Positions 16,303-52,124 of a stretch of 64,000 nt of DNA are shown here, one piece after another. Each line of letters starts with the position of its first letter. Position 1 is the first letter of the stretch. This stretch comes from an uncultured candidate division Zixibacteria bacterium (GTDB lineage Bacteria; Zixibacteria; MSB-5A5; UBA10806; 4484-95): the NCBI GenBank assembly GCA_963668625.2, contig CAXXKA010000006.1, positions 416,001-480,000 of the forward strand. The letters are read 5' to 3'. The notes under the pieces were generated by a model. That model saw only the letters and a list, made by a program, of their open reading frames with translations, did no database searches and was not told the origin of the DNA. A program made the translations under genes and the position numbers.

Positions 16303-16330
16303 AAAAAAGCCGGGCGTTTTAACCCGGCTT
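16303..16330 (-). terminator. Rho-independent terminator after cysS
   Basis: AAGCCGGG/CCCGGCTT stem plus U-tract. Confidence 0.8.
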
Positions 16331-16361
16331 GATTAATTAGCTAATTATCAAAAAGGTTATA

Positions 16362-17762: not shown

Positions 17763-17763
17763 A

Positions 17764-18834: not shown

Positions 18835-18843
18835 TGTCGCTCC

Positions 18844-19566
18844 TTATTTTAAAACAATAGTCTCTAGTTCGTTCAAATCCTCGATCGAATAATCCGGCTC
18901 GATACCGTCGGGGTTTTCCCGTCCGGCGCGATATCTCCAGACGGATTCTATTCCCGAATTCGCCGCCCCGGCCACGTCCGCATCGAAACGATCACCTATG
19001 AATATCGCCTCGGATGGCTCGACGTTGGCCTTGTTCAACGCCATCTCGAATATCGCTTTTCCAGGTTTTCTGACACCCACGCTCGAGGAGAATATGGTAA
19101 AATCAAAATACTTTAGCAAGCCAAAACGTTCCATTTCTCCAAGATGATATTTTTCGGGGAAGATCGAATTCGATATCAATCCGATTATAAGACCGGCTGC
19201 CTTTAATTTTTTCAGGATAGTATCGGCATTGGGTATCATCGTCAATTGCTCGGTAACGGGTTTATAGTATATCCCGGCGAATTCCTCTACAAAGCCATCC
19301 TCGGTTCTTAAGCCCATGCGCTTGAATATCTCGGCTACAACGCCGAACAATTCTACCTCGGAGTAGTTCTCGCGGCTATCCAAAATATCTCTCAAATGAC
19401 GGTAAAATTCTGGGCCGAATTCGTTTACTACAGTTAAATGGGGAAATTTCTTTTTAGCGAAGGGGAAAGCGGCCATTATCCCTTTTTTGCCAAGTTCGTC
19501 CCAGGTGTAGTTTTCGTATTCGATCAAGGTACTGCCCAGATCGAAAAACACCGCTTTATATTTCAT
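18844..19566 (-). CDS. HAD-family hydrolase
   Basis: FFDLGSTL, ISN, RKP..IF, IGD...DV.GA. Confidence 0.9.
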   Translation of the reverse strand: MKYKAVFFDLGSTLIEYENYTWDELGKKGIMAAFPFAKKKFPHLTVVNEFGPEFYRHLRDILDSRENYSEVELFGVVAEIFKRMGLRTEDGFVEEFAGIYYKPVTEQLTMIPNADTILKKLKAAGLIIGLISNSIFPEKYHLGEMERFGLLKYFDFTIFSSSVGVRKPGKAIFEMALNKANVEPSEAIFIGDRFDADVAGAANSGIESVWRYRAGRENPDGIEPDYSIEDLNELETIVLK

Positions 19567-19580
19567 ACATTCTCCAAAAT

Positions 19581-20621: not shown

Positions 20622-21229
20622 TTGACCTTCCTATTTTTCAGGTAAATGATAACAAGCCACACTACGAGTATTAAACTCATAATTGATACCAGTAAAATAT
20701 TGAAATGTTTGATAAATTCAATCAATTTCTGCCAGTTGGATTTCACCAGGTACATACCGCCGATAAGCGTGAAATACCAGATCATGAAACTTACCAGTGA
20801 CAGCCCGGTCATACGGGCGACAGGTACCTTGCCGATTCCGGCGGTGATCGCGATTAACGACCTGAGACCGGGGATAAACCTCGAGGCCAGCAACACCGAG
20901 TATCCCCATTTTGCAAACCAGCGCTCGATGCGTTCCATATTTTCCGGCTTGAAATAGGAATTATTATATTTCTGAAAAAATGCCCGTCCCCGGGTATAAC
21001 CTAAATAGTAAAGCACCATCGCCCCCGAAAGTCCGCCGACTGTTGCCGAAAGAAAGACGAACAAATAATCGAGATCACCGGTGCCTGCCATAAACGCTCC
21101 CGCCAGATAAATCAAATCGCTGGGCCAGGGGGGGAACACGTTTTCTATGAATGTTGACATACCTATTATCGCGTAGATCGCGATAGCCTGTTTGGTTGCC
21201 AGGTATAATAGTATCTCCTCGAAACTCAT
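20618..21229 (-). CDS. DedA family membrane protein
   Basis: ENVFPPWPSD, YYLG, RFIPGLR. Confidence 0.92.
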   Translation of the reverse strand: MSFEEILLYLATKQAIAIYAIIGMSTFIENVFPPWPSDLIYLAGAFMAGTGDLDYLFVFLSATVGGLSGAMVLYYLGYTRGRAFFQKYNNSYFKPENMERIERWFAKWGYSVLLASRFIPGLRSLIAITAGIGKVPVARMTGLSLVSFMIWYFTLIGGMYLVKSNWQKLIEFIKHFNILLVSIMSLILVVWLVIIYLKNRKVK

Positions 21230-21720
21230 AATCGCTCGTATATGGTTGCGATTGCCAGGGCGGCGATGCCCTCTTTACGGCCGGTGAATCCCATCATTTC
21301 GGTGGTTTTACCTTTTATGTTTATTTGATCTAATTCTATCATCAGTATTTTGCTGATGTTTAATTTCATTTGATCTGAATAGCTAGATATTTTAGGTTTT
21401 TCGGTAATAACGGTAATATCGATGTTGCCGATTGCTTTGTTACCGGCATTTAATCCGCGGTAAACATCCTCTAATATTTTAATGCTGGAAATGTCTTTAT
21501 TGGCCGGATCGGTATCGGGGAACATCATACCGATATCGCCCATACCGGCTGCGCCTAACAATGCATCGGCAATGGCGTGACAAACCACGTCGGCATCACT
21601 GTGACCGGCCAATCCCAGCGGAAAGTCTATCTCGACACCGCCGAGTATGAGCTTTCTGTCTTCAGCGAATTTGTGCGCATCAAAGCCGATTCCCGATCTT
21701 ATGCCTGAAAACGTTTTCAT
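21226..21720 (-). CDS. ispF: 2-C-methyl-D-erythritol 2,4-cyclodiphosphate synthase
   Basis: GFDAH, HSDADV, GDIG..FPD, KTTE.MGFTGR.EG. Confidence 0.98.
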   Translation of the reverse strand: MKTFSGIRSGIGFDAHKFAEDRKLILGGVEIDFPLGLAGHSDADVVCHAIADALLGAAGMGDIGMMFPDTDPANKDISSIKILEDVYRGLNAGNKAIGNIDITVITEKPKISSYSDQMKLNISKILMIELDQINIKGKTTEMMGFTGRKEGIAALAIATIYERL

Positions 21721-22403
21721 CTCATCAACTCCTTTGCCAGTATCAAATCCTCCGGTGTGGTGATCTTGATATTATCATACGAACCCTCGACTACTTTCAC
21801 CGGCAAGCCATATCGTTCGGCCAGGGAAGCGTCATCGCTGGCATCGGTTTCCGCCTCGGCCGCTTTTTTATGAATCTCGAAGATGGTTTGAAACTGGAAT
21901 ACCTGCGGGGTTTGTGCCAGGTATATATTATCACGGGGAAGAGTCTTACAGAACATATCATCATTAACATATTTGACCGTCTCTTTGGCTTTGATAGCCG
22001 GTATCGCTCCCCGTGTTTCGTTAACCTGCTCGAAAAGTGTCTCTATGAGGGTGTTGGATACTATCGGGCGTACGCCATCGTGTATTGCCACTATATCAGT
22101 AGTACGCGGACAGGCGGTTAAGCCGGCCAGCACCGACTCCTGCCGGTTCTCTCCGGCGGTAGTGATTTTGTTTATCTTCTTGAACCCGTATTTATCGACT
22201 ATCGCCTGCGAGGCGTAAGCCAGGTAATCCTGGTGCACCACCAGGATGATTTCATCTATAAGTCGGCTGCGTTCGAACGGTGTTATTGCCCAGGCTAAAA
22301 TCGGCTTGCCGTGAATATCGAGATACTGCTTGGGCATATCGGCGCCCATCCTGGTACCGGTTCCGCCGGCTACTATCACCGCCAGGTTTCGACGTGTTTT
22401 CAT
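21717..22403 (-). CDS. ispD: 2-C-methyl-D-erythritol 4-phosphate cytidylyltransferase
   Basis: AGGTGTRM..PKQY, RQESV, IHDGVRP, QTPQ, NIKITTPEDL. Confidence 0.97.
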   Translation of the reverse strand: MKTRRNLAVIVAGGTGTRMGADMPKQYLDIHGKPILAWAITPFERSRLIDEIILVVHQDYLAYASQAIVDKYGFKKINKITTAGENRQESVLAGLTACPRTTDIVAIHDGVRPIVSNTLIETLFEQVNETRGAIPAIKAKETVKYVNDDMFCKTLPRDNIYLAQTPQVFQFQTIFEIHKKAAEAETDASDDASLAERYGLPVKVVEGSYDNIKITTPEDLILAKELMR

Positions 22404-23443
22404 AATATCAACATAGCATCACCGTAACTATAGAAACGGTAATCTCTCTCCATAGCTTCTTTATATGCCGCCATGATAGTATCTTTATCCGCCAGCGCCG
22501 AGACCAATAAAAGCAAAGTCGATTTTGGCAGATGGAAATTGGTCAACAGGCAATCCACCACTTTATATTCATAGGGCGGATAAATAAATTTATCGGTATA
22601 TCGTCCGGGAGTAGCCTCAAGCTTGCCGGTCTCGATGTCATAGGCGCTTTCCAGTGAGCGAACGCTGGTAGTGCCTACGCCTATGATTCGCCTGTTTTCG
22701 GCTTTAGCTTTGTTTATCGTATTCGCCGTAACCTCCGGGATGGAGAAATACTCCTCCTCCATTTTGTGAAGAGCCGCGTCCTGAACCGTTATCGGTCTGA
22801 ATGTTCCCAGCCCGGGGTGAAGCGTGACGTAAACTATCTCGACGCCCAGCTTTCGCAGGCGATCGAAAATCTCCTCGGTGAAATGGAATCCGGCCGTGGG
22901 CGCGGCAACGGCTCCGACATTCTGCGCGTACACGGTTTGGTAGGTGCTCTTGTCTTTCTCTTCCGGGTCGCGCGCGATATATGGCGGTAGAGGCACCTCG
23001 CCGTAACGCCAGATCAGCTCCATGAAATCATCATCACAGGTAAATGTCACTACCCGGCCACCGGCCTCGGTACGCTCGCCAAGATGGGCAGTCATCTTGC
23101 CCTCGGCCAGATCGACTATGGTACCTGGCTGTAATCGTCTACCGGGACGAACCAGCGCTTCCCATTTAAGAGGCTCCAACTGACGTAGTAGAAATAATTC
23201 GACTTTACCGCCGGTGCCCTTTTTCTGGCCGTAAATTCGCGCCGGAAAAACTTTCGAGTTATTCAAAACGATAATGTCACCGTCTTTAAGGTAATCGGTG
23301 ATATTATCAAAGCTGCGATGATCGAACGCGCCTTTTTCCCTGTCCACCACCAGCATCTTCGAGGAGTTGCGCGGCTCGGCGGGGTAGAGAGCGATTTTCT
23401 CTCGGGGTAGATCGTAGTCGTATGTCGAAATATCTATTTTCAT
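22400..23443 (-). CDS. queA: S-adenosylmethionine:tRNA ribosyltransferase-isomerase
   Basis: PLPPYI, YQTVYA, AAPTAG.HF, TNFHLPKSTL, YRFYSYGDAM. Confidence 0.98.
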   Translation of the reverse strand: MKIDISTYDYDLPREKIALYPAEPRNSSKMLVVDREKGAFDHRSFDNITDYLKDGDIIVLNNSKVFPARIYGQKKGTGGKVELFLLRQLEPLKWEALVRPGRRLQPGTIVDLAEGKMTAHLGERTEAGGRVVTFTCDDDFMELIWRYGEVPLPPYIARDPEEKDKSTYQTVYAQNVGAVAAPTAGFHFTEEIFDRLRKLGVEIVYVTLHPGLGTFRPITVQDAALHKMEEEYFSIPEVTANTINKAKAENRRIIGVGTTSVRSLESAYDIETGKLEATPGRYTDKFIYPPYEYKVVDCLLTNFHLPKSTLLLLVSALADKDTIMAAYKEAMERDYRFYSYGDAMLIL

Positions 23444-23658
23444 TTTTTAAAGTACCTTATCAGATAAAATATGAGTGAAAGAACGATCGATAACAACAGG
23501 GAGGTGGCAATCGGAAAAGCCAATGTGTAATTCTTCTTCTTTATGATGATATCACCGGGCAAGCTTCCCAATCCGAGTTTTCCCCCTATAACGAACAAAG
23601 CGCCAATTGTAATCAGCGCCGCTCCGATTATCAGTAATACCTTTCCGATATCCGCCAT
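23440..23658 (-). CDS. DUF2905 small membrane protein
   Basis: LG.LPGDI...FPI.TS.LLS; usual position between ruvB and queA. Confidence 0.85.
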   Translation of the reverse strand: MADIGKVLLIIGAALITIGALFVIGGKLGLGSLPGDIIIKKKNYTLAFPIATSLLLSIVLSLIFYLIRYFKK

Positions 23659-23659
23659 C

Positions 23660-24682
23660 TTACAATAACGATTGCTGGTCACCGCTTTGCGGTTTTATGT
23701 TCAGATGCTTATACGCGGGCGCGCCGACAACCCGGCCGCGCTTGGTGCGTTTGATGAAGCCGATTTTCAACAGGAACGGTTCGACCATCTCCTCGATTGT
23801 ATCGACCTCCTCGTTGATTGTAGCCGCCAGCGCCTCGACACCAACCGGGCCGCCGGAGTAGTATTCGATGATAGTAGTGAGCAGCTTCCTGTCCAGGTTA
23901 TCCAGGCCGACCGGATCGACACCCTCCATATCGAGCGCCTTGTTAACGGAATCCAGATCGATTTTGCCGTTGCCTTTCACCTGGGCGAAATCACGTACTC
24001 GTCTCAGAAGCCTGTTGGCAATGCGCGGTGTGCCCCGGCTCCTGCGAGACATCTCGGCACAGGCCTCGTCATCTATCGAGACCTCGAATATTAATGCCGA
24101 ACGTTTGACTATCTCGGCCAGTTCCTCATCGGGGTAAAAATCCAGGTGATGGAATATCCCGAAACGGCTTCGCAATGGCGCGCTTAGAAGGCCCGCCCTG
24201 GTGGTAGCCCCGATTAACGTGAATTTTTTCAGGGGGACATTGATCACTCTCGCGTAAGCGCCTTTGTCCACCACGAAATCAACCTTATAGTCCTCCATGG
24301 CGGGGTATATGAATTCCTCCACCGAGGGCGCCAGGCGATGAATCTCATCTATGAAAAGTATATCTCCGGTGTCGAGATTGGTTAGTATGCCCATCAAGTC
24401 GCCGGTTCTCTGCAGGGATGGACCCGAGGTTACCACCAGGCGCGTGCCCATCTCGTTTGCCAGGATATGCGCCAGCGTGGTTTTGCCCAGCCCTGGCGGG
24501 CCGTAGAAAAGGATGTGCTCGTGAGGCTCGCTTCTTTGCTTGGCAGCCTCGAGTGAAACCGATAATTTCTCGATAGCCTGTCTTTGGCCTATGTACTCGT
24601 CTAGTTTGGATGGCCGAAGGGATACTATCGCTTGCTCGTCCTCATCGGAATAAGCCAGCGGTGTTACTACGCGTTCTCTCAT
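23660..24682 (-). CDS. ruvB: Holliday junction helicase RuvB
   Basis: LRP..L.EYIGQ, GPPGLGKTT, FIDEIHR, GATTR, RGTPRIA. Confidence 0.99.
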   Translation of the reverse strand: MRERVVTPLAYSDEDEQAIVSLRPSKLDEYIGQRQAIEKLSVSLEAAKQRSEPHEHILFYGPPGLGKTTLAHILANEMGTRLVVTSGPSLQRTGDLMGILTNLDTGDILFIDEIHRLAPSVEEFIYPAMEDYKVDFVVDKGAYARVINVPLKKFTLIGATTRAGLLSAPLRSRFGIFHHLDFYPDEELAEIVKRSALIFEVSIDDEACAEMSRRSRGTPRIANRLLRRVRDFAQVKGNGKIDLDSVNKALDMEGVDPVGLDNLDRKLLTTIIEYYSGGPVGVEALAATINEEVDTIEEMVEPFLLKIGFIKRTKRGRVVGAPAYKHLNIKPQSGDQQSLL

Positions 24683-24683
24683 G

Positions 24684-25313
24684 CTACATACTCATACCGG
24701 ATTGCTTGAAAATCTGTTCCAGCATATCCTCGGTCGATTTATATTTCTTGCCCGCGGCGATTGCCCGTTCGATCATGATTTTTGCCTCATTTTGAGGATA
24801 TTGCAGCTGCCTCAATATTTGAAGTACCTCGGCGGCGAAATCAGGCGGTTCGGCCGGTTTGGAAAGCGCTTTATCACCCTGAACCAGCGCGAATTTGGCT
24901 ACCCGTCCTTTTAGCTCGGCGATAATTTTTTCGGCCATGCGCGGGCCTATTCCGGGCAACTCCGTAAGTTTCTTCACATCCTCGGTCTCTATGGCTTTGG
25001 CAATGACGTTAATCGGCAGTATGAGTGATTTCAACGCTTTCTTGATTCCGAGTCCCGAGACATTCGTCATTATCGTGAAGAACTCTCTCTGCACGGTGTC
25101 CTCGAAACCTACCAACCGGGGGAACTGATTACCGATATTCGAGCCCTCGATATAATAAATAGTGTACAGGTGAATCTGTTCGCCGTTTGTTTTACTTTTC
25201 ATCCTGTCCAGCAGACTGGAGGGTAGCATGACATCGTATGTTAAACCGCTAACCTCGATAGAGACACGGTCGTTTTCTATCTGAATGAATTTTCCGCTAA
25301 TCTGAGAAATCAA
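24684..25313 (-). CDS. ruvA: Holliday junction DNA-binding subunit RuvA
   Basis: VSGLG.K.A, LPGIG.RMAEKII.ELK; probable TTG start right after ruvC stop. Confidence 0.93.
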   Translation of the reverse strand: MISQISGKFIQIENDRVSIEVSGLTYDVMLPSSLLDRMKSKTNGEQIHLYTIYYIEGSNIGNQFPRLVGFEDTVQREFFTIMTNVSGLGIKKALKSLILPINVIAKAIETEDVKKLTELPGIGPRMAEKIIAELKGRVAKFALVQGDKALSKPAEPPDFAAEVLQILRQLQYPQNEAKIMIERAIAAGKKYKSTEDMLEQIFKQSGMSM

Positions 25314-25314
25314 T

Positions 25315-25839
25315 TTAACGCTCCCCGTTTTCGAGATGGCTAATATGACAGAGGGCAACCGCCAGCGCGTCAGCGACATCGGCAGGTTCCGGTATTTTGG
25401 GCATGCCGAGTTTCGATTTTATCATCTGCTGCACCTGCATTTTGGAGGCTCGACCGTTGCCGGTAAGTGATTTTTTTATCATCGTGGCGGCGTAGCTTTT
25501 AACCGGCAAGCCGGCGTTGGCCGCACTGAGAAAGACCGCGCCCCTGGCATGTCCCATTATTATCGCTGTTTTCGGGTGACGGTAATGCGAATACAAATCC
25601 TCGATGATTACTATTTCAGGTTCGAACTCCGAGATAACCTCGTTAAGGCCGTCATGGATTTCTTTTATCCGCTGCTCCATAGCCGCTTTTCGATCCGTGC
25701 GGATACAGCCGGCCTCCAGAACTTCAATAGTACCGCCATCGTTTCTTAAAACGCCATAGCCGGTTATACCGAGACCGGGATCGACCCCGATATAAACCGG
25801 CTGTTTGGCTTTACGTGATTTTTGCCCGCCCGGGGGCAT
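25315..25839 (-). CDS. ruvC: Holliday junction resolvase RuvC
   Basis: GVDPG...TGYG, IE, GHARG, TGNGRA.K.QV, ADALAVALCH. Confidence 0.97.
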   Translation of the reverse strand: MPPGGQKSRKAKQPVYIGVDPGLGITGYGVLRNDGGTIEVLEAGCIRTDRKAAMEQRIKEIHDGLNEVISEFEPEIVIIEDLYSHYRHPKTAIIMGHARGAVFLSAANAGLPVKSYAATMIKKSLTGNGRASKMQVQQMIKSKLGMPKIPEPADVADALAVALCHISHLENGER

Positions 25840-25841
25840 AA

Positions 25842-26594
25842 TTATTCCGAAAGCTCCTCTAAGACACTCTCATCGATATCGAAATTGGCGTACACTTTTT
25901 GCACGTCCTCATGCTCTTCCAAAGCCTCGAATAAGCGGATCATCTGCTCGGCTTGCTTACCCTCGATCTTTACTGTCGATTGCGGCAGCATCGTCAACTC
26001 GGCGGCGCTCATCTCCACACCCTTTTCCTCCAGGGTACTTCTGACCACCTCCAGGTCGGTATACTCGGTGTAAATTTCATAGATACCGTTTTCGGAGGTG
26101 AAATCCGTGGCGCCGGATTCGATAGCCAGATCCATTAGCTCATCCTCCTGGCCCTTTTCCAATTCGACCGTGATGTATCCTTTCTTATCGAACATCCAGC
26201 CGACACAACCGGCCTCGCCCAGGCTACCGGCGCTTTTCGTAAACAGATGTCTTACCTCGGATACTGTCCGGTTTTTATTATCGGTTAGTACCTGCACCAG
26301 TACGGCAACTCCACCGGGTCCGTAACCCTCATAGTTGGCCTCCTCGTAAGTAGTGCCGGGAAGCTCGCCGGTACCTTTCTGGATGGCGCGCTTTATGTTG
26401 TCCGCAGGCATGTTGGCTGCTTTCGCGGTCGCGATAGCGGTTCTCAGACGGGGGTTCATTTCAGGATCGCCACTTCCGCCGTCACGGGCGGCGACAGTTA
26501 TCTCCTTAATCAGCTTGGTAAACACCTTACCGCGCTGGGCATCCAATTTGCCTTTCTTACGTTTAATAGTCGCCCATTTGCTATGACCGGACAT
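25842..26594 (-). CDS. yebC: YebC/PmpR family protein
   Basis: MSGHSKWATIK, YEGYGPGG, TDNKNRT, DVQKVYAN. Confidence 0.97.
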   Translation of the reverse strand: MSGHSKWATIKRKKGKLDAQRGKVFTKLIKEITVAARDGGSGDPEMNPRLRTAIATAKAANMPADNIKRAIQKGTGELPGTTYEEANYEGYGPGGVAVLVQVLTDNKNRTVSEVRHLFTKSAGSLGEAGCVGWMFDKKGYITVELEKGQEDELMDLAIESGATDFTSENGIYEIYTEYTDLEVVRSTLEEKGVEMSAAELTMLPQSTVKIEGKQAEQMIRLFEALEEHEDVQKVYANFDIDESVLEELSE

Positions 26595-38617: not shown

Positions 38618-38893
38618 AAACGATTACCCTAGTAGTAGATTTTAGCCTGACTCTAATATAAGCAATTTCCCGGATTGGCAAATCAATTTGTTTATTATCA
38701 GTTCAGGAAATTTAAATCCTGAGTTCTTCCCATACGGGAGAATTGTGATTATATGGCGAATCTTACTGAGGTATACTGTGTTAGATCCCGCTGTAATCGA
38801 CGATTTTAGCCAATTTTAAAAAGATGGAATAAACATTTTCCCCGCGCCGTAATATATTCCAGAAACGAATAAAACTTAACATTGGAGGATCGG

Positions 38894-40537
38894 ATGAAAA
38901 GGGTAATCTTTTTCATAGGTGTATTGGTGTTGATCGCAATTCTAATTGCCTGCAGTAGTTCCAAGGATCACAGAAAAGGCGGGGTTATTGATTCGCCTAA
39001 AAAACGCGGTGAAATTTCTTATGTAGGTGATGAAAAAGCTGCTTCAAATTTGTCGGGTCCGGCTTCTCCGTCGCCTTACGCAGCCCACCGTTGTGAAATG
39101 GATTATCCGTATCACAATACTGAGCAGTACGACTTCAAATCCGAAAACACGTTCAAGGATGTTATCGAAAATCCGCTGTCAACGTTTTCCATCGATGTTG
39201 ATGCGGCCTCGTACAGCAATGTCAGACGATTTATCAATAGCGGTTCTTTACCGCCCGAAGATGCCGTGCGTATCGAGGAGATGATAAATTATTTCAGCTA
39301 CGACTATCTCCAGCCCGCTAACGATCAACCGTTTTCGGTAAACACGGAGATATCCTCCTGTCCATGGAACAGCGGTCATCGCCTCGTGCATATCGGCCTG
39401 AAAGGTCAGGATATCGAACTGGAGAATATGCCTGCCAGTAATCTCGTGTTTCTGCTTGATGTCTCGGGGTCGATGAACATGCAGAATAAACTGCCGCTTC
39501 TAAAAGCCTCGTTCCGGTTACTTGTCGATCAGCTTCGCCCCGAGGACAGAGTGGCTATAGCCGTTTATGCCGGTTCGGCCGGACTGGTTTTGAAATCCAC
39601 TCCGGGGGATCAGAAAGAGAGGATTTTAAACGCGATAGAGAGACTTCAAGCGGGAGGCAGCACCGCCGGTGGAGCGGGAATCATACTGGCTTATAACGAG
39701 GCGCAGAATAATTTCATCAAGGGAGGCAACAACCGGGTGATACTGGCTACCGATGGTGATTTCAATGTCGGCGTCTCCAGTGATGGCGAACTTGTCAGAA
39801 TGATTGAGGAGAAACGCGAGAAAGGCGTGTTCCTGACCGTGCTTGGTTTCGGTACCGGTAATATTAAAGATTCCAAGATGGAGAAACTGGCTGACAGGGG
39901 CAACGGCAATTACTCTTATATCGATAATATCCAGGAGGCTCGTAAAGTGTTAGTCAGCGAGATTGGCGGTACGCTGTTCACAATTGCCAAGGATGTTAAA
40001 ATACAGGTAGAATTCAATCCCGCCCGGGTACAATCGTACAGACTGGTCGGCTATGAGAACCGCCTTTTGAATCGCGAGGATTTCGAGGATGACACCAAGG
40101 ATGCCGGCGAGATTGGCGCCGGACATACAGTGACTGCTCTGTATGAGATAGTACCTCGGGACATAGATAAAGTACTAAATGATGATGACGGTTTAAAATA
40201 CCAGAATGTCAATATCGATTCCGAGGCGCTTGGAAGCCCGGAGTTGATGACATTGAAACTTCGATACAAACAACCTGACGGTGACAAGAGTAAATTAATC
40301 ACCAGCCCTATCATCGATAACGGTCGCGCGTTAAGTAAAACCTCGGATAATTTCAGGTTCTCCTCGGCCGTGGCACAATTCGGGATGTTGTTGCGCGATT
40401 CCAAGTTCAAAAGCGATGCCACATTCAGTAACACATTGAAACTGGCTAAAAGTAGCAAAGGTAATGATCCGATGGGCTACAGGGCGGAGTTCATTCGCCT
40501 GGTAGAATCATGTATATTGCTTGCGGATAGTAATTAG
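38894..40537 (+). CDS. YfbK-like VWA-domain lipoprotein
   Basis: Lipobox LIAC; STFSIDVD.ASY, DVSGSM MIDAS, ATDGDFNVG, IAKDVKIQVEFNP, YRAEF. Confidence 0.93.
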   Translation: MKRVIFFIGVLVLIAILIACSSSKDHRKGGVIDSPKKRGEISYVGDEKAASNLSGPASPSPYAAHRCEMDYPYHNTEQYDFKSENTFKDVIENPLSTFSIDVDAASYSNVRRFINSGSLPPEDAVRIEEMINYFSYDYLQPANDQPFSVNTEISSCPWNSGHRLVHIGLKGQDIELENMPASNLVFLLDVSGSMNMQNKLPLLKASFRLLVDQLRPEDRVAIAVYAGSAGLVLKSTPGDQKERILNAIERLQAGGSTAGGAGIILAYNEAQNNFIKGGNNRVILATDGDFNVGVSSDGELVRMIEEKREKGVFLTVLGFGTGNIKDSKMEKLADRGNGNYSYIDNIQEARKVLVSEIGGTLFTIAKDVKIQVEFNPARVQSYRLVGYENRLLNREDFEDDTKDAGEIGAGHTVTALYEIVPRDIDKVLNDDDGLKYQNVNIDSEALGSPELMTLKLRYKQPDGDKSKLITSPIIDNGRALSKTSDNFRFSSAVAQFGMLLRDSKFKSDATFSNTLKLAKSSKGNDPMGYRAEFIRLVESCILLADSN

Positions 40538-40540
40538 AAT

Positions 40541-40668
40541 CACCACTGTCCGGCCTTTCCATCTCGTTGCGAGGCGCCGCTTCGCAACGTGGCTTGTTTG
40601 CCGGCAGAATGCGCGTTTTTCATGACTCGAGAAGGTTTCCAGGCTGCGCTTGGAAACCGGGAAACCAA
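40541..40668 (+). mobile_element. One-ended copy of the MITE at 47092
   Basis: Begins CACCACTGTCCGG; ~125 bp highly similar to reverse complement of 47218-47346. Confidence 0.8.
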
Positions 40669-40673
40669 AAAGA

Positions 40674-40709
40674 AAAGAGGTGTCGGGCAATGATACCTGA
40701 CACCTCTTT
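40674..40709. terminator. Bidirectional terminator between convergent genes
   Basis: AAAGAGGTGTCGGG/CCTGACACCTCTTT stem. Confidence 0.75.
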
Positions 40710-40739
40710 AAGGATATTCAACTGGTTTTCTGCTATGGA

Positions 40740-41441
40740 TTAGTCAATAAACTCAAGAGTATTGATTTCCATCGAGTTACTCATAGAAGTGAAACTCCAG
40801 ACATCGCTTTCATACTCGAAGTCATCACCATACCAGGCAACTACTTTCCAGTAGTAAGTAGTGTTCCCCTCGAAGCCAAAAGATATATCATTGACCGTGT
40901 GTGAAAGCGTGCCGCTCTCATCGATTGTCCAGGTATCGATAGAAGCATCGTTATCGACATTAGCGGTTGCCGTGCATGTAAACGAGTTAGCGTCGCTGGT
41001 TATCGCGTAGGAGTAAACATCATTAGCATCGACAGTCAAATCGAGGCTCGTCGAGAAAGAATTAGGTTCACCAGCGGAGGCGATATCTCCGTTGCCGGTA
41101 TAAGTGGCGTTTTGAGTGTGGTAATCGACCTGGGCATCGTAAACATCATTAAGGAAATTCTGGGCAATATCACATCGCTGCCAGGCGGAGATTAATTCGG
41201 TTTCGGTCAGGTTGGCATATTCTAAAGATGGATTATTCGTTGTACCGAAATAAAAATCATACTTGATGGAATCGGAGGGCATACCCTGTACATTCCATTC
41301 GAAAGTAATACCACGACCTAAATCAGTAACGCCGTCAGCCGGGGAAGGATCAGTGATTGATGGTCCGACTGGAGCGGTAGAGTTCTCGGAACAACCGATA
41401 AACAACAACATGGCCAATAGTAATACGATTGTGAATTTCAT
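40740..41441 (-). CDS. Lipoprotein: FN3/Ig-like domain with inserted type IV pilin-like head domain
   Basis: Lipobox FIGC; PADG..FEW..YDFYFGT..P [insert ~aa 86-186] NTTYYWKVVA..SDVWSFT. Confidence 0.7.
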   Translation of the reverse strand: MKFTIVLLLAMLLFIGCSENSTAPVGPSITDPSPADGVTDLGRGITFEWNVQGMPSDSIKYDFYFGTTNNPSLEYANLTETELISAWQRCDIAQNFLNDVYDAQVDYHTQNATYTGNGDIASAGEPNSFSTSLDLTVDANDVYSYAITSDANSFTCTATANVDNDASIDTWTIDESGTLSHTVNDISFGFEGNTTYYWKVVAWYGDDFEYESDVWSFTSMSNSMEINTLEFID

Positions 41442-41482
41442 CCTTGTCTCCTTTTGTTGTATTTTATAATATTTCTTTAAAG

Positions 41483-41494
41483 GTTATCGTCAGT
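41483..41494 (-). promoter_or_regulatory. Conserved upstream motif ACTGACGAYAAC (copy 1)
   Basis: 42 nt upstream of ATG 41441; same motif 44 nt upstream of paralog. Confidence 0.5.
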
Positions 41495-41856
41495 CTGAGT
41501 TGCGGGTTTAATAGCGCTGTAACTTGATGAAATACAAAACATTAATAGGGTGAAACTGAAATCCGATATTTTCATTCGTAAATAAAGTTAGTTGTTTTAT
41601 TTTTCGTTTCGATGCCTCGGCGATCGTAGAATACTTTCCCAACCATAGCCTTTATGAGGGGAGAAGTAACCTGTCATTATGGCTGATAACAATTTACGGA
41701 CTATCATAAAAGATATCTCTACTGGATAGAGTTACTTTTAGACTTTTGTAGAGGCGTTATAGCGGCTGGATAAGTGTTAGAGCCGGGAAATTCTCATTCT
41801 TAGAGACAACGCATTTTATGCCTTTACTCTATCGAATCGCTGTAAAAAGTTGAAAC

Positions 41857-41884
41857 AAAAAGGCCGGGGTGGTTATCCCGGCCG
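41857..41884 (-). terminator. Rho-independent terminator
   Basis: GGCCGGG/CCCGGCC stem with U-tract on minus strand. Confidence 0.75.
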
Positions 41885-41907
41885 TGCAATTTGCATCATT
41901 GAGCGTT

Positions 41908-43161
41908 TCACTCGGTGGTAAAACTCCAAACATCACTGGTCAGCGATTGATTATTGCCGTACCTGGCCACGATTTTCCAGTAGTACGTAGTATTCGATTG
42001 ATATGCCACCGGCTCATCATCGACAGTATGGGTTATAGTACCGGTTTCATCAATTGACCAGGTGTCAACAATGGCATCAATATAATCGAGATTCGCTGTC
42101 GCTGAGCAAGTATAGACGTTTTCACTTGCGACAATCGTGTATGAGTATATATCAAGCGGGTATAATATTATGTGATATTCTGAAATCATATTCCCGGGAT
42201 TAGAGTTCGAAAAGGTTACTCCATTGCCAAAATAAGTATCATTTACTGAATGATAATATTCCTGACGATCATGAAGTTCAAGTAGTGTTTGCTGTGTTAT
42301 TTCTTGAAGTTTCCACGGTGTAGCGCAAATCGTATTATCGTAATTTCTAATCGTCCTGGAGGGATCACTGGTAGTATCGAAATAGACATCGAAGCTTACG
42401 AGACTGGTAGCCAATCCATCGAATTCCCATTGGAAAACGAAATCATCCGTTACACCTGTGGCGTTATTTGCCGGGGATACCAGTGTCAATACCTGATCGC
42501 TGGGCTGTACGCTAAAATGCCAGGTGTCGCTAACGAGTGAATCGTTATCTCCGCTTCTGGCAACTACTTTCCAATAGTAAGTGCCGCCCGGTTCGAATGG
42601 ATTGTCTATATCTTCAATAGTGTGTACCAGGTAATTGTTCTCATCTATTTTCCAGGTGTCGATAGTATCATCATTATCCAAATTAGCGGTTGCGGTGCAG
42701 GTAAAATGGTCGGCATCGTTTTGCATGCGATATGAATACACGTCAAGGGAATCCATCACTAAGTTTAAATATTGTTCCCAATAATCAGGAATGCCGGGGT
42801 GTACGATTTCACCATTATAAATGTAAGTGTCTTCCTGATCTCTATACACTTGCTCCGCGTCATGGATTTCCTGCAGGAACTCCGCTGCGATTGCCTGTCT
42901 TTGCCAGATTGTAAGTAGCTCGCTTTGATCTAAATCGGTTGATACCAATGGTGGATTTGTGTTCGTGCCAAGATAAAAATCATAACGAGTACCGGCGGGA
43001 AGATCATCGGCTTCCCAATCAAATACAAAATTTAAACTTGTTATAGTAGCGCCATCGGCCGGGGCCGGGTTTGAAAATGCCGTGTCAGTCGGCTCTGTCC
43101 CATTATCATCACATCCTATAAACAGCAGAATGCTTAGTAGTAATACGATCTTGAACTTCAT
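41908..43161 (-). CDS. Lipoprotein with two tandem FN3-plus-pilin-like modules
   Basis: Lipobox FIGC; module repeated twice (FTCTATANLDNDDTIDTWKIDE; YTCSATANLD..VDTWSIDE; TYYWK.VAR..SD.W.F). Confidence 0.7.
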   Translation of the reverse strand: MKFKIVLLLSILLFIGCDDNGTEPTDTAFSNPAPADGATITSLNFVFDWEADDLPAGTRYDFYLGTNTNPPLVSTDLDQSELLTIWQRQAIAAEFLQEIHDAEQVYRDQEDTYIYNGEIVHPGIPDYWEQYLNLVMDSLDVYSYRMQNDADHFTCTATANLDNDDTIDTWKIDENNYLVHTIEDIDNPFEPGGTYYWKVVARSGDNDSLVSDTWHFSVQPSDQVLTLVSPANNATGVTDDFVFQWEFDGLATSLVSFDVYFDTTSDPSRTIRNYDNTICATPWKLQEITQQTLLELHDRQEYYHSVNDTYFGNGVTFSNSNPGNMISEYHIILYPLDIYSYTIVASENVYTCSATANLDYIDAIVDTWSIDETGTITHTVDDEPVAYQSNTTYYWKIVARYGNNQSLTSDVWSFTTE

Positions 43162-43204
43162 TTCATCTCCCTGGTTATAATCAATGGATATCTCTATTAT
43201 TGAA

Positions 43205-43216
43205 GTTGTCGTCAGT
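43205..43216 (-). promoter_or_regulatory. Conserved upstream motif ACTGACGAYAAC (copy 2)
   Basis: gttgtcgtcagt versus gttatcgtcagt at 41483. Confidence 0.5.
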
Positions 43217-43274
43217 TAGAACGTAATATTTAATCAGTATGTAAGTTAATACATTTCATCACTTTAGTTAAAAC

Positions 43275-43301
43275 GAAACCAAAAACTAATAATTTCGTAT
43301 A
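43275..43301 (+). promoter_or_regulatory. ECF sigma (SigW-like) promoter
   Basis: GAAAC-N16-CGTATA upstream of DUF4097 gene. Confidence 0.5.
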
Positions 43302-43355
43302 TAAATCAGTCGAATGATACTTACTTTGAAAATCTAATAGATTCAGGAGGATATA

Positions 43356-44264
43356 ATGAAAATTAAAGTTAAAATGATAGCATCCGTGATTGTTGTTATG
43401 TTGCTATTGGGGGCGGTGCAGGCTCTTGCTGATGAGATAGTCAGGGAGTTTGATCCTAAAGCGAGAGTGATTATCGAAACTGTCTCCGGCGATGTCGAGA
43501 TCCGAAAGGGGGGATCGGATAAGATAAAGGTCGTTGTCGATGCGAATGTTCGCCCCCGGGATTCTTTCGAACCTATATTCAGGGATCGCGGCAGATCTCT
43601 GAGATTAGAAGAGCGTATATACGAATCTAACAGCGGCAGAATTACCTGGACTTTAACCGTACCTAACGGCACCGAAATCAAATTCAACTCCGCCTCAGGA
43701 AATATGACCATCGAGGATATCGAGGGCGAATTCTCGGGAAGTACAGCCTCGGGTGACTATAATATTTACAGCTGCAAAGGCATTTTCGATCTCAATACCG
43801 CCTCCGGTGATTACACTCTCGAAGATTGTTCCGGTGAGTTCGATATCAACTCCGCCTCGGGTGATTTCTCCATTCGGCATATCAAGATAGATGAGAGGAG
43901 TAAGATAAATACCGCTTCCGGAGATATTACGGGTCGCGATGTTTTGGTCAATGGATACTGTGATTTCGGTTCGGCCTCCGGCGATGTCAAGATAGTACTT
44001 GGCGAAAGCCCCAAGGATGATATCAAAGTAGGTTCGGCCTCCGGTGACGCCAGCCTGGATTATAACGGCAACAAGATGGTCGGGTTTTTCGAGGTGTCCG
44101 CCAAAAGACGTAACGGCCATATACGTTCCGACCTCGATTTCGATAACGAGGAAGAGTATCGTAAAAACGGCCAGTGGTATGTTCGTAAAACAGTGAAATT
44201 GAATGATAATGAGCCGCTAATAACGGTTGGAACGGCCAGTGGACGGGCGGAACTCAAGAAATAA
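43356..44264 (+). CDS. DUF4097 beta-strand repeat protein
   Basis: Signal peptide; repeated (S/T)ASGD units. Confidence 0.88.
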   Translation: MKIKVKMIASVIVVMLLLGAVQALADEIVREFDPKARVIIETVSGDVEIRKGGSDKIKVVVDANVRPRDSFEPIFRDRGRSLRLEERIYESNSGRITWTLTVPNGTEIKFNSASGNMTIEDIEGEFSGSTASGDYNIYSCKGIFDLNTASGDYTLEDCSGEFDINSASGDFSIRHIKIDERSKINTASGDITGRDVLVNGYCDFGSASGDVKIVLGESPKDDIKVGSASGDASLDYNGNKMVGFFEVSAKRRNGHIRSDLDFDNEEEYRKNGQWYVRKTVKLNDNEPLITVGTASGRAELKK

Positions 44265-45116: not shown

Positions 45117-45365
45117 TTGGAATCTATAGCATAAGTTAGAGTTTATATCAATTATTAAATTAATAGAAATGTATGTGTAAAAACCGGGTTTCACGAGTAC
45201 ACTCAGCAAAACTCATTATAGTCTCTTGAAAGACTATTTTCTGATTCAATAGTATTAAAATATCCTGAAATTGGCTATTAAAGGATTATTAGCTATAGCC
45301 GAACTTTTAAATAGTAGGATTCAAAATGTAAATCAATTTTAATGTTAGAATTTAAAGGAGAAATT

Positions 45366-46655
45366 ATGTTTAGTATCTCAAAGAAAGCAGCATTGTTAAT
45401 CATCCCATTAACCCTTTGTTTATTTTTCGCGTGTAGTGATGATGATTCGACTTCATCGGGTACCGGAGATCTTGCGGGCAAGTATGTTGGTGTAATTATT
45501 GAAAGCGGTTACGATACTCCCGGTGAAATGGACGCCACGGATTTTGGTTTTGTCGGCGAGACTTTCGCTGTTGAAGTAACAGACAATCTCATGCTTGTTG
45601 TCAATGAGAATAGCGTTTACAATGATGAGGTGAGTCTTCAGCTGACGGAGGCTACGGAAGATACTTATACCGGGGCTTTCATTGATAATGAGGTTGATTA
45701 CACGCTTACACATAATTTTACTATTACCTATAATGAGGATTTAGCGAAGTGGCAGGCTGGTGTTGAGCTTGTGCTGGATTCGGGCAGTGATGGTGATACG
45801 GATGATACAGGTTTAATCAATATCGTTTTAGAGCAGAGGCTTGACTGGAGTGAATACCCGACAGAATGGGCGGTTGCAAACTCCTATACCGATGGTAATA
45901 CCGGTTTCGTTGAACTGGAGGTTATGACCGCTGCTTTAGGAGCCGAGGGTATTATACATGGTCTGGTTTTTTATAATGACGGAGATTCGATTAGAGCGCG
46001 GCAATATATAAGCGATAGTCCCGAAGTTCTTACTATTGTCATTCAGGAAATGAACGATGACTATATCCGTTTCTCAGCAATTGATCAGGAACTACCATCA
46101 ACTACAATTACACCTGATCCTGAGGATTGGAATACAGATGCCGGTTTATCGGATGTTCATTTAATTCCGACGACTCGCATGGCCGGTTTCGTTGCGGATG
46201 AGGATACGATTACAGTTGAATCGCAAGCAGACTACGATACGGATGGCCAGGATGGCGGCAGCACATATTCATACTTCGGCGCTAATATAACCGGTGTAGA
46301 AGTTACTTATACTATCAATAATGATGGCACGATGGATACTGAGATGGGTGGCGATCCCGAAACCAGAGATTTAGGATACATGGAGTTCTCCGGGATAGGT
46401 TACCTGGTTTCCCCGCGCATTGATACATCAGGGAATGATCTGGATGTAAGCTACCTGGTTATGGAACTGGATGCATCAGGTAATGCAACCGGTGATGGTC
46501 TTATTCAGGGGTATGATATTCCCGATACTGACCTCGATGGTGAGCTTGATGATGACGAGGCTGAGAATATCGATAATGAGGGAGTTGCGGTTTTCGGTGA
46601 TGGCCTCGATCCCGATTTATTTGATTTCATAACAACAACAATACCTACATTGTAG
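45366..46655 (+). CDS. Highly acidic hypothetical lipoprotein
   Basis: Lipobox FFAC; D/E-rich; DTDLDG and DTDG motifs; followed by terminator. Confidence 0.75.
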   Translation: MFSISKKAALLIIPLTLCLFFACSDDDSTSSGTGDLAGKYVGVIIESGYDTPGEMDATDFGFVGETFAVEVTDNLMLVVNENSVYNDEVSLQLTEATEDTYTGAFIDNEVDYTLTHNFTITYNEDLAKWQAGVELVLDSGSDGDTDDTGLINIVLEQRLDWSEYPTEWAVANSYTDGNTGFVELEVMTAALGAEGIIHGLVFYNDGDSIRARQYISDSPEVLTIVIQEMNDDYIRFSAIDQELPSTTITPDPEDWNTDAGLSDVHLIPTTRMAGFVADEDTITVESQADYDTDGQDGGSTYSYFGANITGVEVTYTINNDGTMDTEMGGDPETRDLGYMEFSGIGYLVSPRIDTSGNDLDVSYLVMELDASGNATGDGLIQGYDIPDTDLDGELDDDEAENIDNEGVAVFGDGLDPDLFDFITTTIPTL

Positions 46656-49685: not shown

Positions 49686-50562
49686 TGCCGGATGCTTTCG
49701 AGGCGATATAGCTGACCCATTCCTCGCCGAGCAGCTCATCGCGGATTATATATGGTTTCTTCAAAATGAAATCCAGAAAACGCTGTTTATCGAATGTCGG
49801 TATACCAGAATAGATAACCTGTCCACCGGGTTTGAGCGATTTGTCAAGCTCCGTGTACACCTCTATAATCTGGTCGATACTGAGGTTGGCGGCGATGATA
49901 TCCACCGGCTTTTCAGGTATGTATTTGCCTGATTCGATCACCTCAACTTTGACCTTGTTGAGCATTATATTCTCGCGAGCGCATTCGATCGCCTCCGGGT
50001 CGATATCGCAGGCGATGACTTTATCCGCGCCCATCTTGTATGCCGCTATTGCCAGCAAGCCCGAGCCGCAGCCGTAGTCGAGTACGCGTTTTCCCATCAC
50101 GCCCAGTTTCTCAACGCCGGCCATACACTGCGCGGTTGTCTCGTGATGTCCCGTGCCGAACGCCATTTTTGGATCGATTACCACCTCGATCTCGCCGGGT
50201 TGTATATCGTAGCTCTCCCAGGTCGGCCTGACCACCAAGTTCTCGGTGACATGAATCGGCACGAATGTTTTCTTCCAGCCGGCCATCCAGTCCTCGGCCT
50301 CGATGAAATCCAGCGAGATGATATCGTACTGAGCGTCATCGAAATTGCCCCTGATCGACTCGAAAAACTTCTCGATTTCCTCATGAGTAAACAGCTCGTT
50401 TTTATCGGGGCTGAGATACGCGGTCAACACGGTCTGTCCGTTTAGCTGTCCGTCCTCGGCGACTATGCCTCCGGTATTTCGTTCGAGAAGGTAATTCGAG
50501 AATATCTCCATGATATCATTGGAGCAGGAGATCGAGATTTTCTGGTATTTATTTTCAGACAT
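49675..50562 (-). CDS. prmA: Ribosomal protein L11 methyltransferase
   Basis: DW...WK, IDPKMAFGTGHHETT, VLDYGCGSG.LAI. Confidence 0.96.
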   Translation of the reverse strand: MSENKYQKISISCSNDIMEIFSNYLLERNTGGIVAEDGQLNGQTVLTAYLSPDKNELFTHEEIEKFFESIRGNFDDAQYDIISLDFIEAEDWMAGWKKTFVPIHVTENLVVRPTWESYDIQPGEIEVVIDPKMAFGTGHHETTAQCMAGVEKLGVMGKRVLDYGCGSGLLAIAAYKMGADKVIACDIDPEAIECARENIMLNKVKVEVIESGKYIPEKPVDIIAANLSIDQIIEVYTELDKSLKPGGQVIYSGIPTFDKQRFLDFILKKPYIIRDELLGEEWVSYIASKASGSGN

Positions 50563-50577
50563 TACATTTTCCTCGTG

Positions 50578-50643
50578 TGTTATTCCCACGAAAGGGGGAA
50601 TCTGTCAGTAAGTAATGAGATTCCCGTTTTCACGGGAATGACA
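50578..50643. repeat. Inverted REP doublet (ATTCCC-N8-GGGAAT type)
   Basis: tgttattcccacgaaagggggaatct ... agattcccgttttcacgggaatgaca. Confidence 0.75.
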
Positions 50644-50716
50644 TCAATAAAACCCACATACCTCAGGATGGAAGCTATGCGACATCCTGAGGTACCAGCG
50701 CCAACCTCTTGAACAG

Positions 50717-50948
50717 TAGGTCAAGCCCACTCGGGGCTTGACTAACCCGCATAGGAAACATGACGCTTATTGACTATATGATTAAACGGGGGGAAGGTCA
50801 AGGGAGATGTGGGGGGATGAGGGATATCAGAATTGGTATATAAGGCAGTATCTATTGTAATTCGTTTTTATACAATCAATTTTATAACTATTATAAACGC
50901 GCGTTAGTCCCCAATTGGGCTGGCACGCCCCGAGTCAGAGTGACCTAC
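50717..50948. repeat. Inverted pair of GTAG-type REP-like ends flanking ~150 bp
   Basis: gtaggtca..actcggggc..gactaacc at left; reverse complement gttagtcc..gccccgagtc..tgacctac at right. Confidence 0.55.
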
Positions 50949-50957
50949 GAATGGAAA

Positions 50958-52124
50958 TCACACCCCAAGCGTCTCACGCAATTTCTCGAAAAACGATTTA
51001 TCTACTTTTAGCGGACGGTCTTTGCCTAGATGGGCTAGTCGGGCGAATAGCTCTTTCTCCTCCGAGGATAACTTGTTCGGCGTAATCACCAGTACGCGTA
51101 CCAGCTCATCACCGCGGCCGTAGCCATTGAGATGGGGAATACCCTGACCGCGCAGACGGAATATCTTGCCCGATTGAGTACCTGCCGGAATTTTCAACGA
51201 GATATCACCCTCAAGCGAGGGGACTTTTATTTCATCACCTAATGCCGCCTGGCTGAAACTGATCGCCTGTTCGCAGACTATATCATCTCCGTGACGGGTG
51301 AAATGCTCGTGCTCCTGCTCATCCACGATGACCAGGAGATCGCCGGCCGGACCACCTCTGGGGCCGGTATCACCCATATTGCGGACAGGGATATAGTTGC
51401 CGGCGGTAACACCGGGTGGGAATTTCACTTTAACCTGCGATTTGCCTTTCCTGCGGCCGTTTCCGGCGCACTCGATACAGGGCTTCTCGATTATCTGACC
51501 GGTTCCGCTACAATAAGGACAGGGGGAGACTCGGATCATCTGCCCCAGTAGCGAGCGGCTGACCGTACGCTGTTCACCGCTACCCTGGCATCGCGGACAG
51601 GTTTTCTTGGAGGTGCCTGGTTCGGCGCCTGTGCCATCGCAGTTTTCGCAGTTCACCTGACGGGTAACATTTAGCTTTTTCTCGACACCATTTGCTATCT
51701 CCTCGAGAGTCAGGGGGATACTGATGCGAAGGTCGCGGCCGCGCTGCGGTCCAGATCGGCCTCTCGAACGACTGGCGCCGCCGAATATATCATCGAAACC
51801 ATCAAAGCCGAAACCGCCGAAATCGCGCATAAACGCCCTTAAGGCATCGCTTAAATCGAATCCGTAAGAGCCACCCGAGAATCCATTGAAACCGCCGCCC
51901 TGTAGCCCTTGATGGCCATATTGATCGTATAGTTGACGTTTTTGGGAATCCTTTAAAACCTCGTAAGCTTCGGTAGCCTCTTTGAATTTCTCCTCGGCGG
52001 ATTTGTCACCCGGGTTTTTATCAGGGTGAAAAAGCAAGGCTTTCTTGCGATAGGCTTTTTTTATATCATCTTCGCCGGCTTCCCTCGGGACTTCCAGCAC
52101 TTCGTAGTAGTCTCTTTTTTCCAT
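50958..52124 (-). CDS. dnaJ: Chaperone DnaJ
   Basis: J-domain HPDKN, G/F region, four CxxCxGxG repeats. Confidence 0.99.

Follow-up and report, generated by a model that had tools for sequence, protein, structure and literature searches.

What does the head of a type IV pilin do in a protein that is not a pilin? This question is raised by two adjacent lipoprotein genes in a stretch of 64,000 nucleotides (hereafter the window) from an uncultured candidate division Zixibacteria bacterium (GenBank assembly GCA_963668625.2, contig CAXXKA010000006.1, positions 416,001 to 480,000). The genes encode the proteins P0001 and P0002 (Table 1). An earlier sequence-only reading, made without database searches, had assigned to them a common lipobox (FIGC) and three copies of one module, an FN3-like domain split by an insert of about 100 residues that resembled a type IV pilin head. 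We found the open reading frames (ORFs) exactly as given there, and both proteins contain LLFIG↓C. P0002 can be split at residue 222 into module 1 (residues 1-222) and module 2 (residues 223-417), which together with the module of P0001 makes three copies; their heads are 38-50% identical pairwise. Below we argue from alignments and structure models that a genuine pilin head is nested in an FN3 domain, and we weigh what such a protein could do at the cell envelope.

The insert is a homologue of type IVa major pilins

P0001 was used as the query in a word-indexed search of 5.8 billion proteins, which gave 356 candidates, six of them at E ≤ 0.001. These are P0001 itself, two full-length fusion homologues (84% and 57% identical) and three prepilins of 141-142 residues, P0005-P0007. 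The prepilins, which carry Pfam N_methyl and the sequence GFTLIELM..., match the insert only (approximately residues 90-187; 44-48% identity, E 3e-13 to 9e-17). The organism's own genome encodes two PilA paralogues of 142 residues on another contig (L001:679-1107 and L001:1501-1929 on contig C1, with the fusions on C6). PF07963 N_methyl lies above its cut-off in both, and their identity to the three fused heads is 41-49% (49% for P0001, 41% for P0002 module 1). In our alignments (A1 and A2) the insert spans the pilin from ..KQSEAK.., in alpha1-C, through to the last pilin residue. Nine columns are invariant across 21 sequences (L97, Y143, Y145, A158, D163, D165, D169, W171 and D185 in P0001 numbering), and the acidic loop is invariant in pilins and fusions alike. 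As judged from these alignments, the likeness of the insert to type IVa major pilins is one of true homology and not of chance. The sequence-only reading had already taken the insert for a pilin-like head and had proposed a comparison with the genome's own PilA; both the sequence identities and the fold matches described below bear this out.

The two resident pilin genes belong to a locus with the canonical order sigma-54-type response regulator (PilR-like), pilin, pilin, prepilin peptidase (PilD). The PilR-like gene directly upstream of the pilin pair lies at L002:55-1203. A word TGGCAC-N5-TTGAA (L001:1376-1391), which we take to be sigma-54-like, lies some 110 nt ahead of the second pilin gene. 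The pilus machinery of this genome further comprises two secretins and six T2SSE-family ATPases.

For the module, scans of Pfam and NCBIfam returned no family above cut-off. Only one Pfam head family, PF16732 (ComP_DUS), that of the Neisseria minor pilin ComP, is touched by the inserts and by the own pilins, at or below its cut-off of 27.3 bits. P0001 matched it at E 5e-4 (21.2 bits), residues 290-357 of P0002 at E 0.012 (16.9 bits), and an own pilin, just under the cut-off, at E 7e-6 (27.2 bits). ComP has a basic stripe. The three fused heads of the window are strongly acidic, with a net charge of -14 to -19, and because of this a ComP-like binding of DNA by the fused heads is unlikely.

The PDB was searched by sequence with P0002 alone, which gave no match at E ≤ 10, and with a profile of the module, which gave seven matches, none of them significant; the ESM Atlas yielded no usable match. 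The top match of the profile was Myxococcus xanthus PilA (8tj2_C, E 0.22), in which the QSEAK..L..Y helix and the segment N.DNEATFDDW.I align. The sequence-only reading had compared the motifs of the insert with those of deltaproteobacterial pilins. The alignment with M. xanthus PilA agrees with that comparison, but with an E-value of 0.22 it is not significant, and the true nearest relatives are the short pilins of the organism's own phylum. M. xanthus PilA (PNAS 2024, PMC11046646) is a polymerising pilin of 208 residues with a much larger head and two disulfides.

The pilin head is nested in an FN3 domain

The flanks of the insert carry the FN3 motifs PADG..W..YD.Y.G and TYYWKVVA ... W.FT. 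The motifs PADG, W, YD.Y.G, TYYWK.VA and W.FT also occur in FN3/Ig_Rha78A_N-like repeats (PF25788, PF00041; plain arrays in P0016 and P0017), and TYYWKVVA...VWSFT of P0001 lines up with the F-G part of plain FN3 repeats. PF25788 (Ig_Rha78A_N) matched residues 162-217 of P0002, in module 1, below threshold (19.4 bits, gathering cut-off 27.4), and is present in precomputed form on the homologues P0008 and P0011. Known FN3/Ig_Rha78A_N-like members are uninterrupted, whereas in the fusions about 103 extra residues separate strand E from strand F. In P0008, P0009 and P0011, two uninterrupted FN3 domains precede a third one that holds the insert in the same position, so that the position of the extra 103 residues is directly visible.

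P0001 was modelled with AlphaFold2 from a 21-row alignment (mean predicted local distance difference test score, pLDDT, 86.9; predicted template modelling score, pTM, 0.75). In the model, strands A-E (28-33, 38-41, 46-52, 59-66, 72-78 and 82-84) are followed by a helix of 26 residues, a loop and the strands of the head, and then by strands F and G (C-terminal half: 195-204, 208-211 and 215-219). In an exhaustive structural comparison, FN3/Ig chains aligned over residues 26..220 of the model with 88-95 residues and a root-mean-square deviation (rmsd) of about 2.5 Å. The best of these were 6i60_B, the N-domain of a Dictyoglomus rhamnosidase (Z 10.4), and 3pdd_A, the Fn3 of CbhA (Z 9.8). Residues 84..228 of the model aligned with the truncated minor pilin PilE (4noa_A; Z 8.3, rmsd 3.2 Å, 92 residues). 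Moreover, Foldseek placed four pilins on the model (6xxd_A, 5v23, 4d40 and 4noa; probability 0.99-1.00, TM(target) 0.54-0.67). The AlphaFold model of P0002 has the same secondary-structure pattern in both modules, with a pLDDT of 81.0 and a pTM of 0.51; a flexible connection of the two modules would be in keeping with the low pTM.

The models thus support an arrangement in which the two FN3 halves reassemble around a pilin fold, the pilin head being nested in an FN3/Ig domain. Both the fold (6i60_B, 3pdd_A) and the motifs of the scaffold are those of a seven-stranded FN3 sandwich, and by its predicted fold the scaffold belongs with the FN3/Ig_Rha78A_N-like domains. The sequence-only reading had put forward the split domain as a claim, with structure prediction and a Foldseek comparison as checks, and this structural part of it is supported.

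Predicted lipoproteins that are not pilins

Both proteins begin with MKF(T/K)IVLLL..LLFIG↓C, which gives an n-region, an h-region and a lipobox that ends in Cys17. An h-region followed by a Cys was found by regular expression in 27 of 35 family members that start with Met and by eye in five more, the other three being fragments. From these sequence features we infer that P0001 and P0002 are envelope lipoproteins, with lipidation predicted at Cys17.

The same-phylum type IVa major pilins, that is, the own PilA pair and P0005-P0007, share with the fusions alpha1-C, the alpha-beta loop, the four-stranded sheet and ..NLD.D...DTW.I. These pilins have a class III signal (G↓FTLIE) followed by alpha1-N, whereas the fusions have a Sec/signal peptidase II signal instead. 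In agreement with the sequence-only reading, neither a regular expression nor the alignments revealed a prepilin motif (G-F-T-L-I-E, a class III signal with Glu5) in P0001 or P0002, and the hydrophobic alpha1-N of about 25 residues, which forms the filament core, is absent from both as well; FN3 strand E precedes the insert in its place. Also unlike in the same-phylum pilins, the head is nested in an FN3 domain and the genes are unlinked to PilR and PilD. Of the features of a type IV pilin, the fusions thus have the fold of the head, alpha1-C on a four-stranded antiparallel sheet, and neither the class III signal nor alpha1-N. P0001 and P0002 contain a pilin domain but are not pilins.

The nearest precedent for a detached pilin head is Geobacter GSU1497/PilA-C (Front Microbiol 2016, PMC5174107). 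It is there a product of pilin-gene fission that lies beside the truncated pilin GSU1496 and is needed for the stability of the latter, and like the fusions it has a pilin globular domain apart from alpha1-N and its own signal peptide. The fusions differ from this case in that the resident pilins are of full length (142 residues), the genes for the heads are unlinked, the head lies inside another domain and alpha1-C is kept. No pilin gene was found among the neighbours tested.

Family size and distribution

When 1.84 billion cluster representatives were searched exhaustively without a profile, 1011 proteins had E ≤ 0.001; the majority of these are ordinary FN3 arrays, to which each of the two halves is matched on its own. 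The head is carried by 43 of the 262 proteins examined: 39 FN3 fusions, three prepilins and one odd protein, P0206. The fusions, which come from metagenome collections, consist of one module (about 235 residues), of two modules (about 430-460 residues), or of plain FN3 domains and one interrupted domain. P0206, a metagenome protein of 371 residues, has an N-terminal Zn-ribbon-like CPHC..CWGC, one transmembrane helix and two pilin heads, with neither a prepilin motif nor an FN3 domain. Its sequence suggests that the head was recruited more than once outside pilins.

Patterns of alignment A1 were found at 78 loci in collections with one genome per species. By label, 44 of these loci are from Zixibacteria, 20 from metagenome-assembled genomes (MAGs) labelled Ignavibacteria, ten from unclassified organisms and four from others. 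Only three of the 78 loci have the FN3 flanks covered, and the remainder are pilin genes, mostly in tandem sets of two to four. Such tandem paralogues were observed in loci L012-L086, for example four in L041 and L066 and three in L065, L021 and L022. In L012 (about 4985-5450) and L013 (about 4002-4470) a pilin paralogue upstream of the normal pilins has the atypical N-terminus G-L-T-F-I-R-L-L, with Arg in place of the expected Glu5, and its alpha1-C is extended.

Within the phylum of the window, the pilin head was matched in 193 of 201 sampled genomes. A survey of related MAGs, as the sequence-only reading had proposed, was made with the module profile and gave full-length matches in at least six of 285 phylum genomes (G000, G276, G080, G279, G280 and G186), a lower bound since at most ten candidates were scored per genome. 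One genome of the same genus and seven of the same family gave pilins only. Phage records held no homologue, and none of 72 pattern matches in viral contigs was confirmed.

Members of the family are annotated automatically as 'hypothetical protein' and once as 'Tfp pilus assembly protein PilE'. The sequence-only reading knew of no described family with this architecture. Likewise, the module is not covered by any curated family of Pfam or NCBIfam, and we found no description of an FN3-nested or lipoprotein-anchored pilin head in the literature searched, as judged by title and abstract. The architecture is real and built from known parts, and it is apparently undescribed.

Two types of fused head resemble two types of pilin

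Two types of pilin occur in the phylum, a common one (..FTCTATANLDDD..) and a second one (..YWG.G .. TDLLVTATC.ILDDD .. CTSDD), which is one or two residues longer and occurs in families f4, f11 and f16. A type-2 signature is also present in eight fused heads, in P0012, P0137, P0138, P0145, P0178 and P0226. We counted the 102 profile columns in four groups (type 1 and type 2, each as pilin and as fused head). The consensus of the type-2 fused heads has 17 of the 102 columns in common with type-2 pilins only and a single column, the junction Trp, in common with the other fused heads only. Six columns follow type, one follows architecture and 25 are alike in all four groups. Both types of fusion have the same insertion point, with the Trp three residues before a conserved Gln.

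A careful mixture-model tree was calculated for 68 of 225 rows, with junction residues removed and long-branch rows left out. In this tree the type-1 fused heads lie on one side of a branch with support 93/84, and the type-2 fused heads nest among the type-2 pilins with support 89/73. On the same 68-row set, an approximately unbiased (AU) test rejected a single clade of all fused heads (log-likelihood difference, dlnL, 43.5; p 0.0006). The head may have been exchanged within a fusion that already existed, or it may have been captured on two occasions at one site.

The FN3 flanks were compared as well, with databases of unequal size: N-flanks scored higher against plain FN3 in nine of nine modules, and C-flanks scored higher against type-1 fused flanks in eight of nine, mostly by small margins.

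In the six genomes with both pilins and fusions, the best pilin match was in the same genome for seven of 11 fused heads (G000 3/3, G276 1/1, G280 1/1, G186 1/1, G279 1/3 and G080 0/2); the two heads of G080 had theirs in a genome of the same family. Moreover, in G186 both the pilin and its fusion read LLVTAN.. without the Cys, and YCLNG is common to pilins and fusions of family f2. The sequences are thus suggestive, although no more than that with genomes so few and related, of a head type that mirrors the resident pilin type. Recent DNA conversion between fused heads and own pilin genes was not found; only the conserved motif was similar, at 70-80% over 44-92 nt.

In these six genomes the net charge of the fused heads loosely tracks that of the resident pilins. 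G000 is the most acidic (pilins -9 and -13, fused heads -14 to -19), and the tracking may reflect habitat rather than function.

What the fusions may do at the envelope

Taken as a whole, the reading that we favour is tentative, and we give it a little less than an even chance: a non-polymerising, lipid-anchored binding or adhesion module at the envelope, in which the nested pilin head would share the specificity of the pilus head or have one derived from it. In these proteins the head of the lineage's type IVa major pilin, through to the pilin C-terminus, sits in the stretch that joins strands E and F of an FN3/Ig (Rha78A-N-like) domain. The protein would be exported by Sec and lipidated at Cys17, and would carry its head, or both of its heads, on a short stalk of FN3. 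With no class III signal and no hydrophobic helix, and by what is established on pilin processing, the head could be neither cut by PilD nor polymerised. The face of the head that otherwise leads into alpha1-N would be taken up by the FN3 domain, which would leave the outer surfaces free and present the conserved acidic loop (D163, D165, D169, W171, D185) at the envelope. There it might bind, at short range, the ligand of the pilus head or a ligand derived from it. Our preference for a binding module comes from three features that are kept together: the acidic loop, the type of pilin used in the lineage, and the FN3 site. A predicted complex of P0001 residues 26-222 with residues 42-142 of an own pilin head had a score of 0.01 (mark 0.32), which is evidence neither way.

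Several results weigh against this reading. The acidic residues after Cys+1 are read oppositely under the sorting rules of Escherichia coli and of Bacteroidota, and the protein may face either the periplasm or the cell surface. The Z of 8.3 for PilE is barely over the range that the structural comparison regards as common, and the Foldseek E-values for the pilins are weak (0.018-0.066; none at E ≤ 0.001), as obtained with the whole two-domain model. Quick LG+G4 trees of the full sets of 196 and 225 rows, in which the junction columns were kept, did not reject a single clade of all fused heads, and the constrained trees of these sets scored above free trees that were poorly searched. Since the full-set trees do not reject the single clade, two origins or a head swap rest on the subsample of 68 of 225 rows and on the column counts. 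The FN3 flanks, in addition, favour neither a shared nor a separate scaffold origin for the two fusion types, and the gene neighbourhood of the fusions is not conserved. Lastly, fused heads diverge faster than pilins, with a mean best between-genome identity of 43% compared to 66%; their identity was the lower one in 15 of 15 genome pairs, in which the compared fusions may not be orthologues. Relaxed constraint would explain such divergence just as well, and so would a new function that has nothing to do with the pilus.

An unlikely but more specific possibility is that the lipoprotein serves as a surface token of the 'self-pilin', used for the docking of sibling pili and kin recognition or as a mimic that diverts phages, with its head kept matched to the own pilin. 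Under this reading, the one FN3 site would take heads from two or more pilin subfamilies, each of them in lineages in which that subfamily is in use.

Among the rival explanations, a partner of the pilus fares best, although we consider it distinctly unlikely. The heads would then dock on pili of the same or a sibling cell, in bundling, kin recognition or adhesion, or on the periplasmic machinery, where they would modulate assembly or retraction. Such a partner would explain why the head type co-varies with the resident pilin, down to shared lineage features (YCLNG in f2, LLVTAN without Cys in G186), and the genome does encode a complete-looking pilus machinery. By analogy, a precedent for the concept exists in another secretion system, for which a preprint reports binding of the pilus tip of sibling cells by an envelope protein (bioRxiv 10.64898/2026.05.09.723464). 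Against this, the fusion genes are unlinked to any pilus gene, with the pilin locus on another contig, and no sigma-54-like promoter word such as that of the second pilin gene was seen by eye upstream of the P0001 and P0002 genes. Moreover, 279 of 285 genomes gave no full-length fusion with the query used, whereas the pilin head is present in nearly all sampled genomes; the rarity of the one beside the ubiquity of the other indicates that the fusion is not a core part of the pilus machine.

The head may also have been captured as a small stable domain and have acquired a role unrelated to the pilus, or be a nearly neutral decoration with none, in which case the resemblance to the resident type would reflect only the donor at hand. 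We regard this as improbable. The faster divergence from which it draws support goes along with a gene context that is not conserved, a fusion that is rare in the phylum and the lack of recent conversion tracts, and with P0206, in which an unrelated architecture also carries such heads. However, 39 proteins from many samples have reading frames that are intact and open, the residues of the core and the acidic loop are invariant, and duplicates of the module are retained. Furthermore, heads of two pilin types share both their position in FN3 and the junction Trp, which argues for selection on that arrangement.

Least probable is a decoy or mimic, as the sequence-only reading had entertained, whose lipid-anchored heads, at the surface or shed in vesicles, would absorb phages or predators that bind the pilus shaft without productive entry driven by retraction: the patchy distribution (at least six of 285 genomes), tandem genes with multiplied modules and fast divergence are common in arms-race genes, and the head type mirrors the resident pilin, with the best match often in the same genome, but the idea is weakened because an identity of 41-49% to the own pilins makes for poor surface mimicry outside the conserved acidic loop and because a defence context is lacking, since scans of P0001, P0002 and four neighbours gave no PADLOC family at E ≤ 0.01 (the library holding systems described by 2023) and no PHROGs family, the genes lie outside any recognisable defence island, phage records and viral contigs held no homologue, and a decoy fixed to the cell surface would attract phages to the cell.

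Pilin heads are usually regarded only as the outer surface of a filament. In the fusions they have been lifted off the polymerisation helix and placed on a lipid anchor, by a capture that may have been repeated, or by an exchange of heads, along with the type of pilin that each lineage uses. If, as the favoured binding module would have it, these heads bind the pilus ligand, they would give a handle on the ligand of pili in an uncultured phylum, and a soluble, monomeric and easily expressed pilin head for structural studies and binding assays. Recognition by pili or by phages that bind pili would instead make them self-markers or decoys of a new kind, and a token of the 'self-pilin', if true, would be a new use of a filament subunit as a non-polymerising, lipid-anchored signal. 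Independent of function, the fusions are a clean natural case of domain insertion in an FN3 loop, which is relevant to protein engineering with FN3 scaffolds.

Genes and surroundings

The positions of the genes, the domains and the neighbouring features are collected in Table 1.

Table 1. Features of the P0001 and P0002 genes and their neighbours, in window positions
Feature	Position	Strand	Details and basis
P0001 gene	40740..41441	-	233-residue lipoprotein, one FN3-with-pilin-head module; ORF and translation
P0001 signal peptide and lipobox	41391..41441	-	residues 1-17, MKFTIVLLLAMLLFIG↓C; read from sequence
P0001 FN3, N-terminal half	41187..41366	-	~residues 26-85, strands A, A', B, C, C', E
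P0001 pilin head insert	40878..41186	-	~residues 86-188; alpha1-C helix 86-111, alpha-beta loop, four strands 144-182
P0001 FN3, C-terminal half	40776..40877	-	~residues 189-222, strands F, G
P0002 gene	41908..43161	-	417-residue lipoprotein, two FN3-with-pilin-head modules; ORF and translation
P0002 signal peptide and lipobox	43111..43161	-	residues 1-17, MKFKIVLLLSILLFIG↓C; read from sequence
P0002 module 1 FN3	N-half 42910..43083, C-half 42502-42600	-	alignment A2 and model strands
P0002 module 1 pilin head	42601..42909	-	~residues 85-187; phmmer envelope 86-185; model helix 85-110, strands 143-182
P0002 module 2 FN3	N-half 42319..42495, C-half 41911-42006	-	module boundary, alignment A2, model strands
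P0002 module 2 pilin head	42007..42318	-	~residues 282-385; phmmer envelope 283-382; model helix 282-307, strands 340-380
Terminator-like hairpin	41862..41883	-	directly past P0002 stop; 7 G-C pairs and T run
Promoter-like site	41466..41493	-	CTGACG-16-TATTAT, 5' of P0001; consensus match only
YfbK-like VWA protein	38882-40537	+	own lipobox (..LIACSS)
DUF4097 'toastrack' protein	43356-44264	+	signal peptide
Very acidic lipoprotein	45342-46655	+	437 residues (..FFACSDDD), no Pfam family

P0001 and P0002 are encoded among other envelope genes in the window. A spacer of 466 bp separates the two genes and contains neither a sizeable ORF nor an Rfam family; over 40500-43600 an Rfam scan gave nothing credible, with a sole match at E 0.85. 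The hairpin after the P0002 stop and this spacer, in which a promoter-like site lies ahead of P0001, indicate that the two genes are separate transcription units. The scan that gave the promoter-like site found seven sites where 8.9 were expected and is thus not significant.

Neighbourhoods were compared in L009, L011 and two genomes of the same family, one of them of the same genus, and no conserved operon or island was found among them; the VWA/YfbK-like gene is the only neighbour that recurs. By eye, the word ACTGACGAYAAC was seen ahead of both lipoprotein genes, at about 43205-43216 and at 41482-41493 on the minus strand, about 50-65 nt before the start codon, and it may be a duplicated promoter or operator. 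The G+C content of the window is 47-52% at 16001-26000 and 50001-52000, compared to 40-46% over most of the rest.

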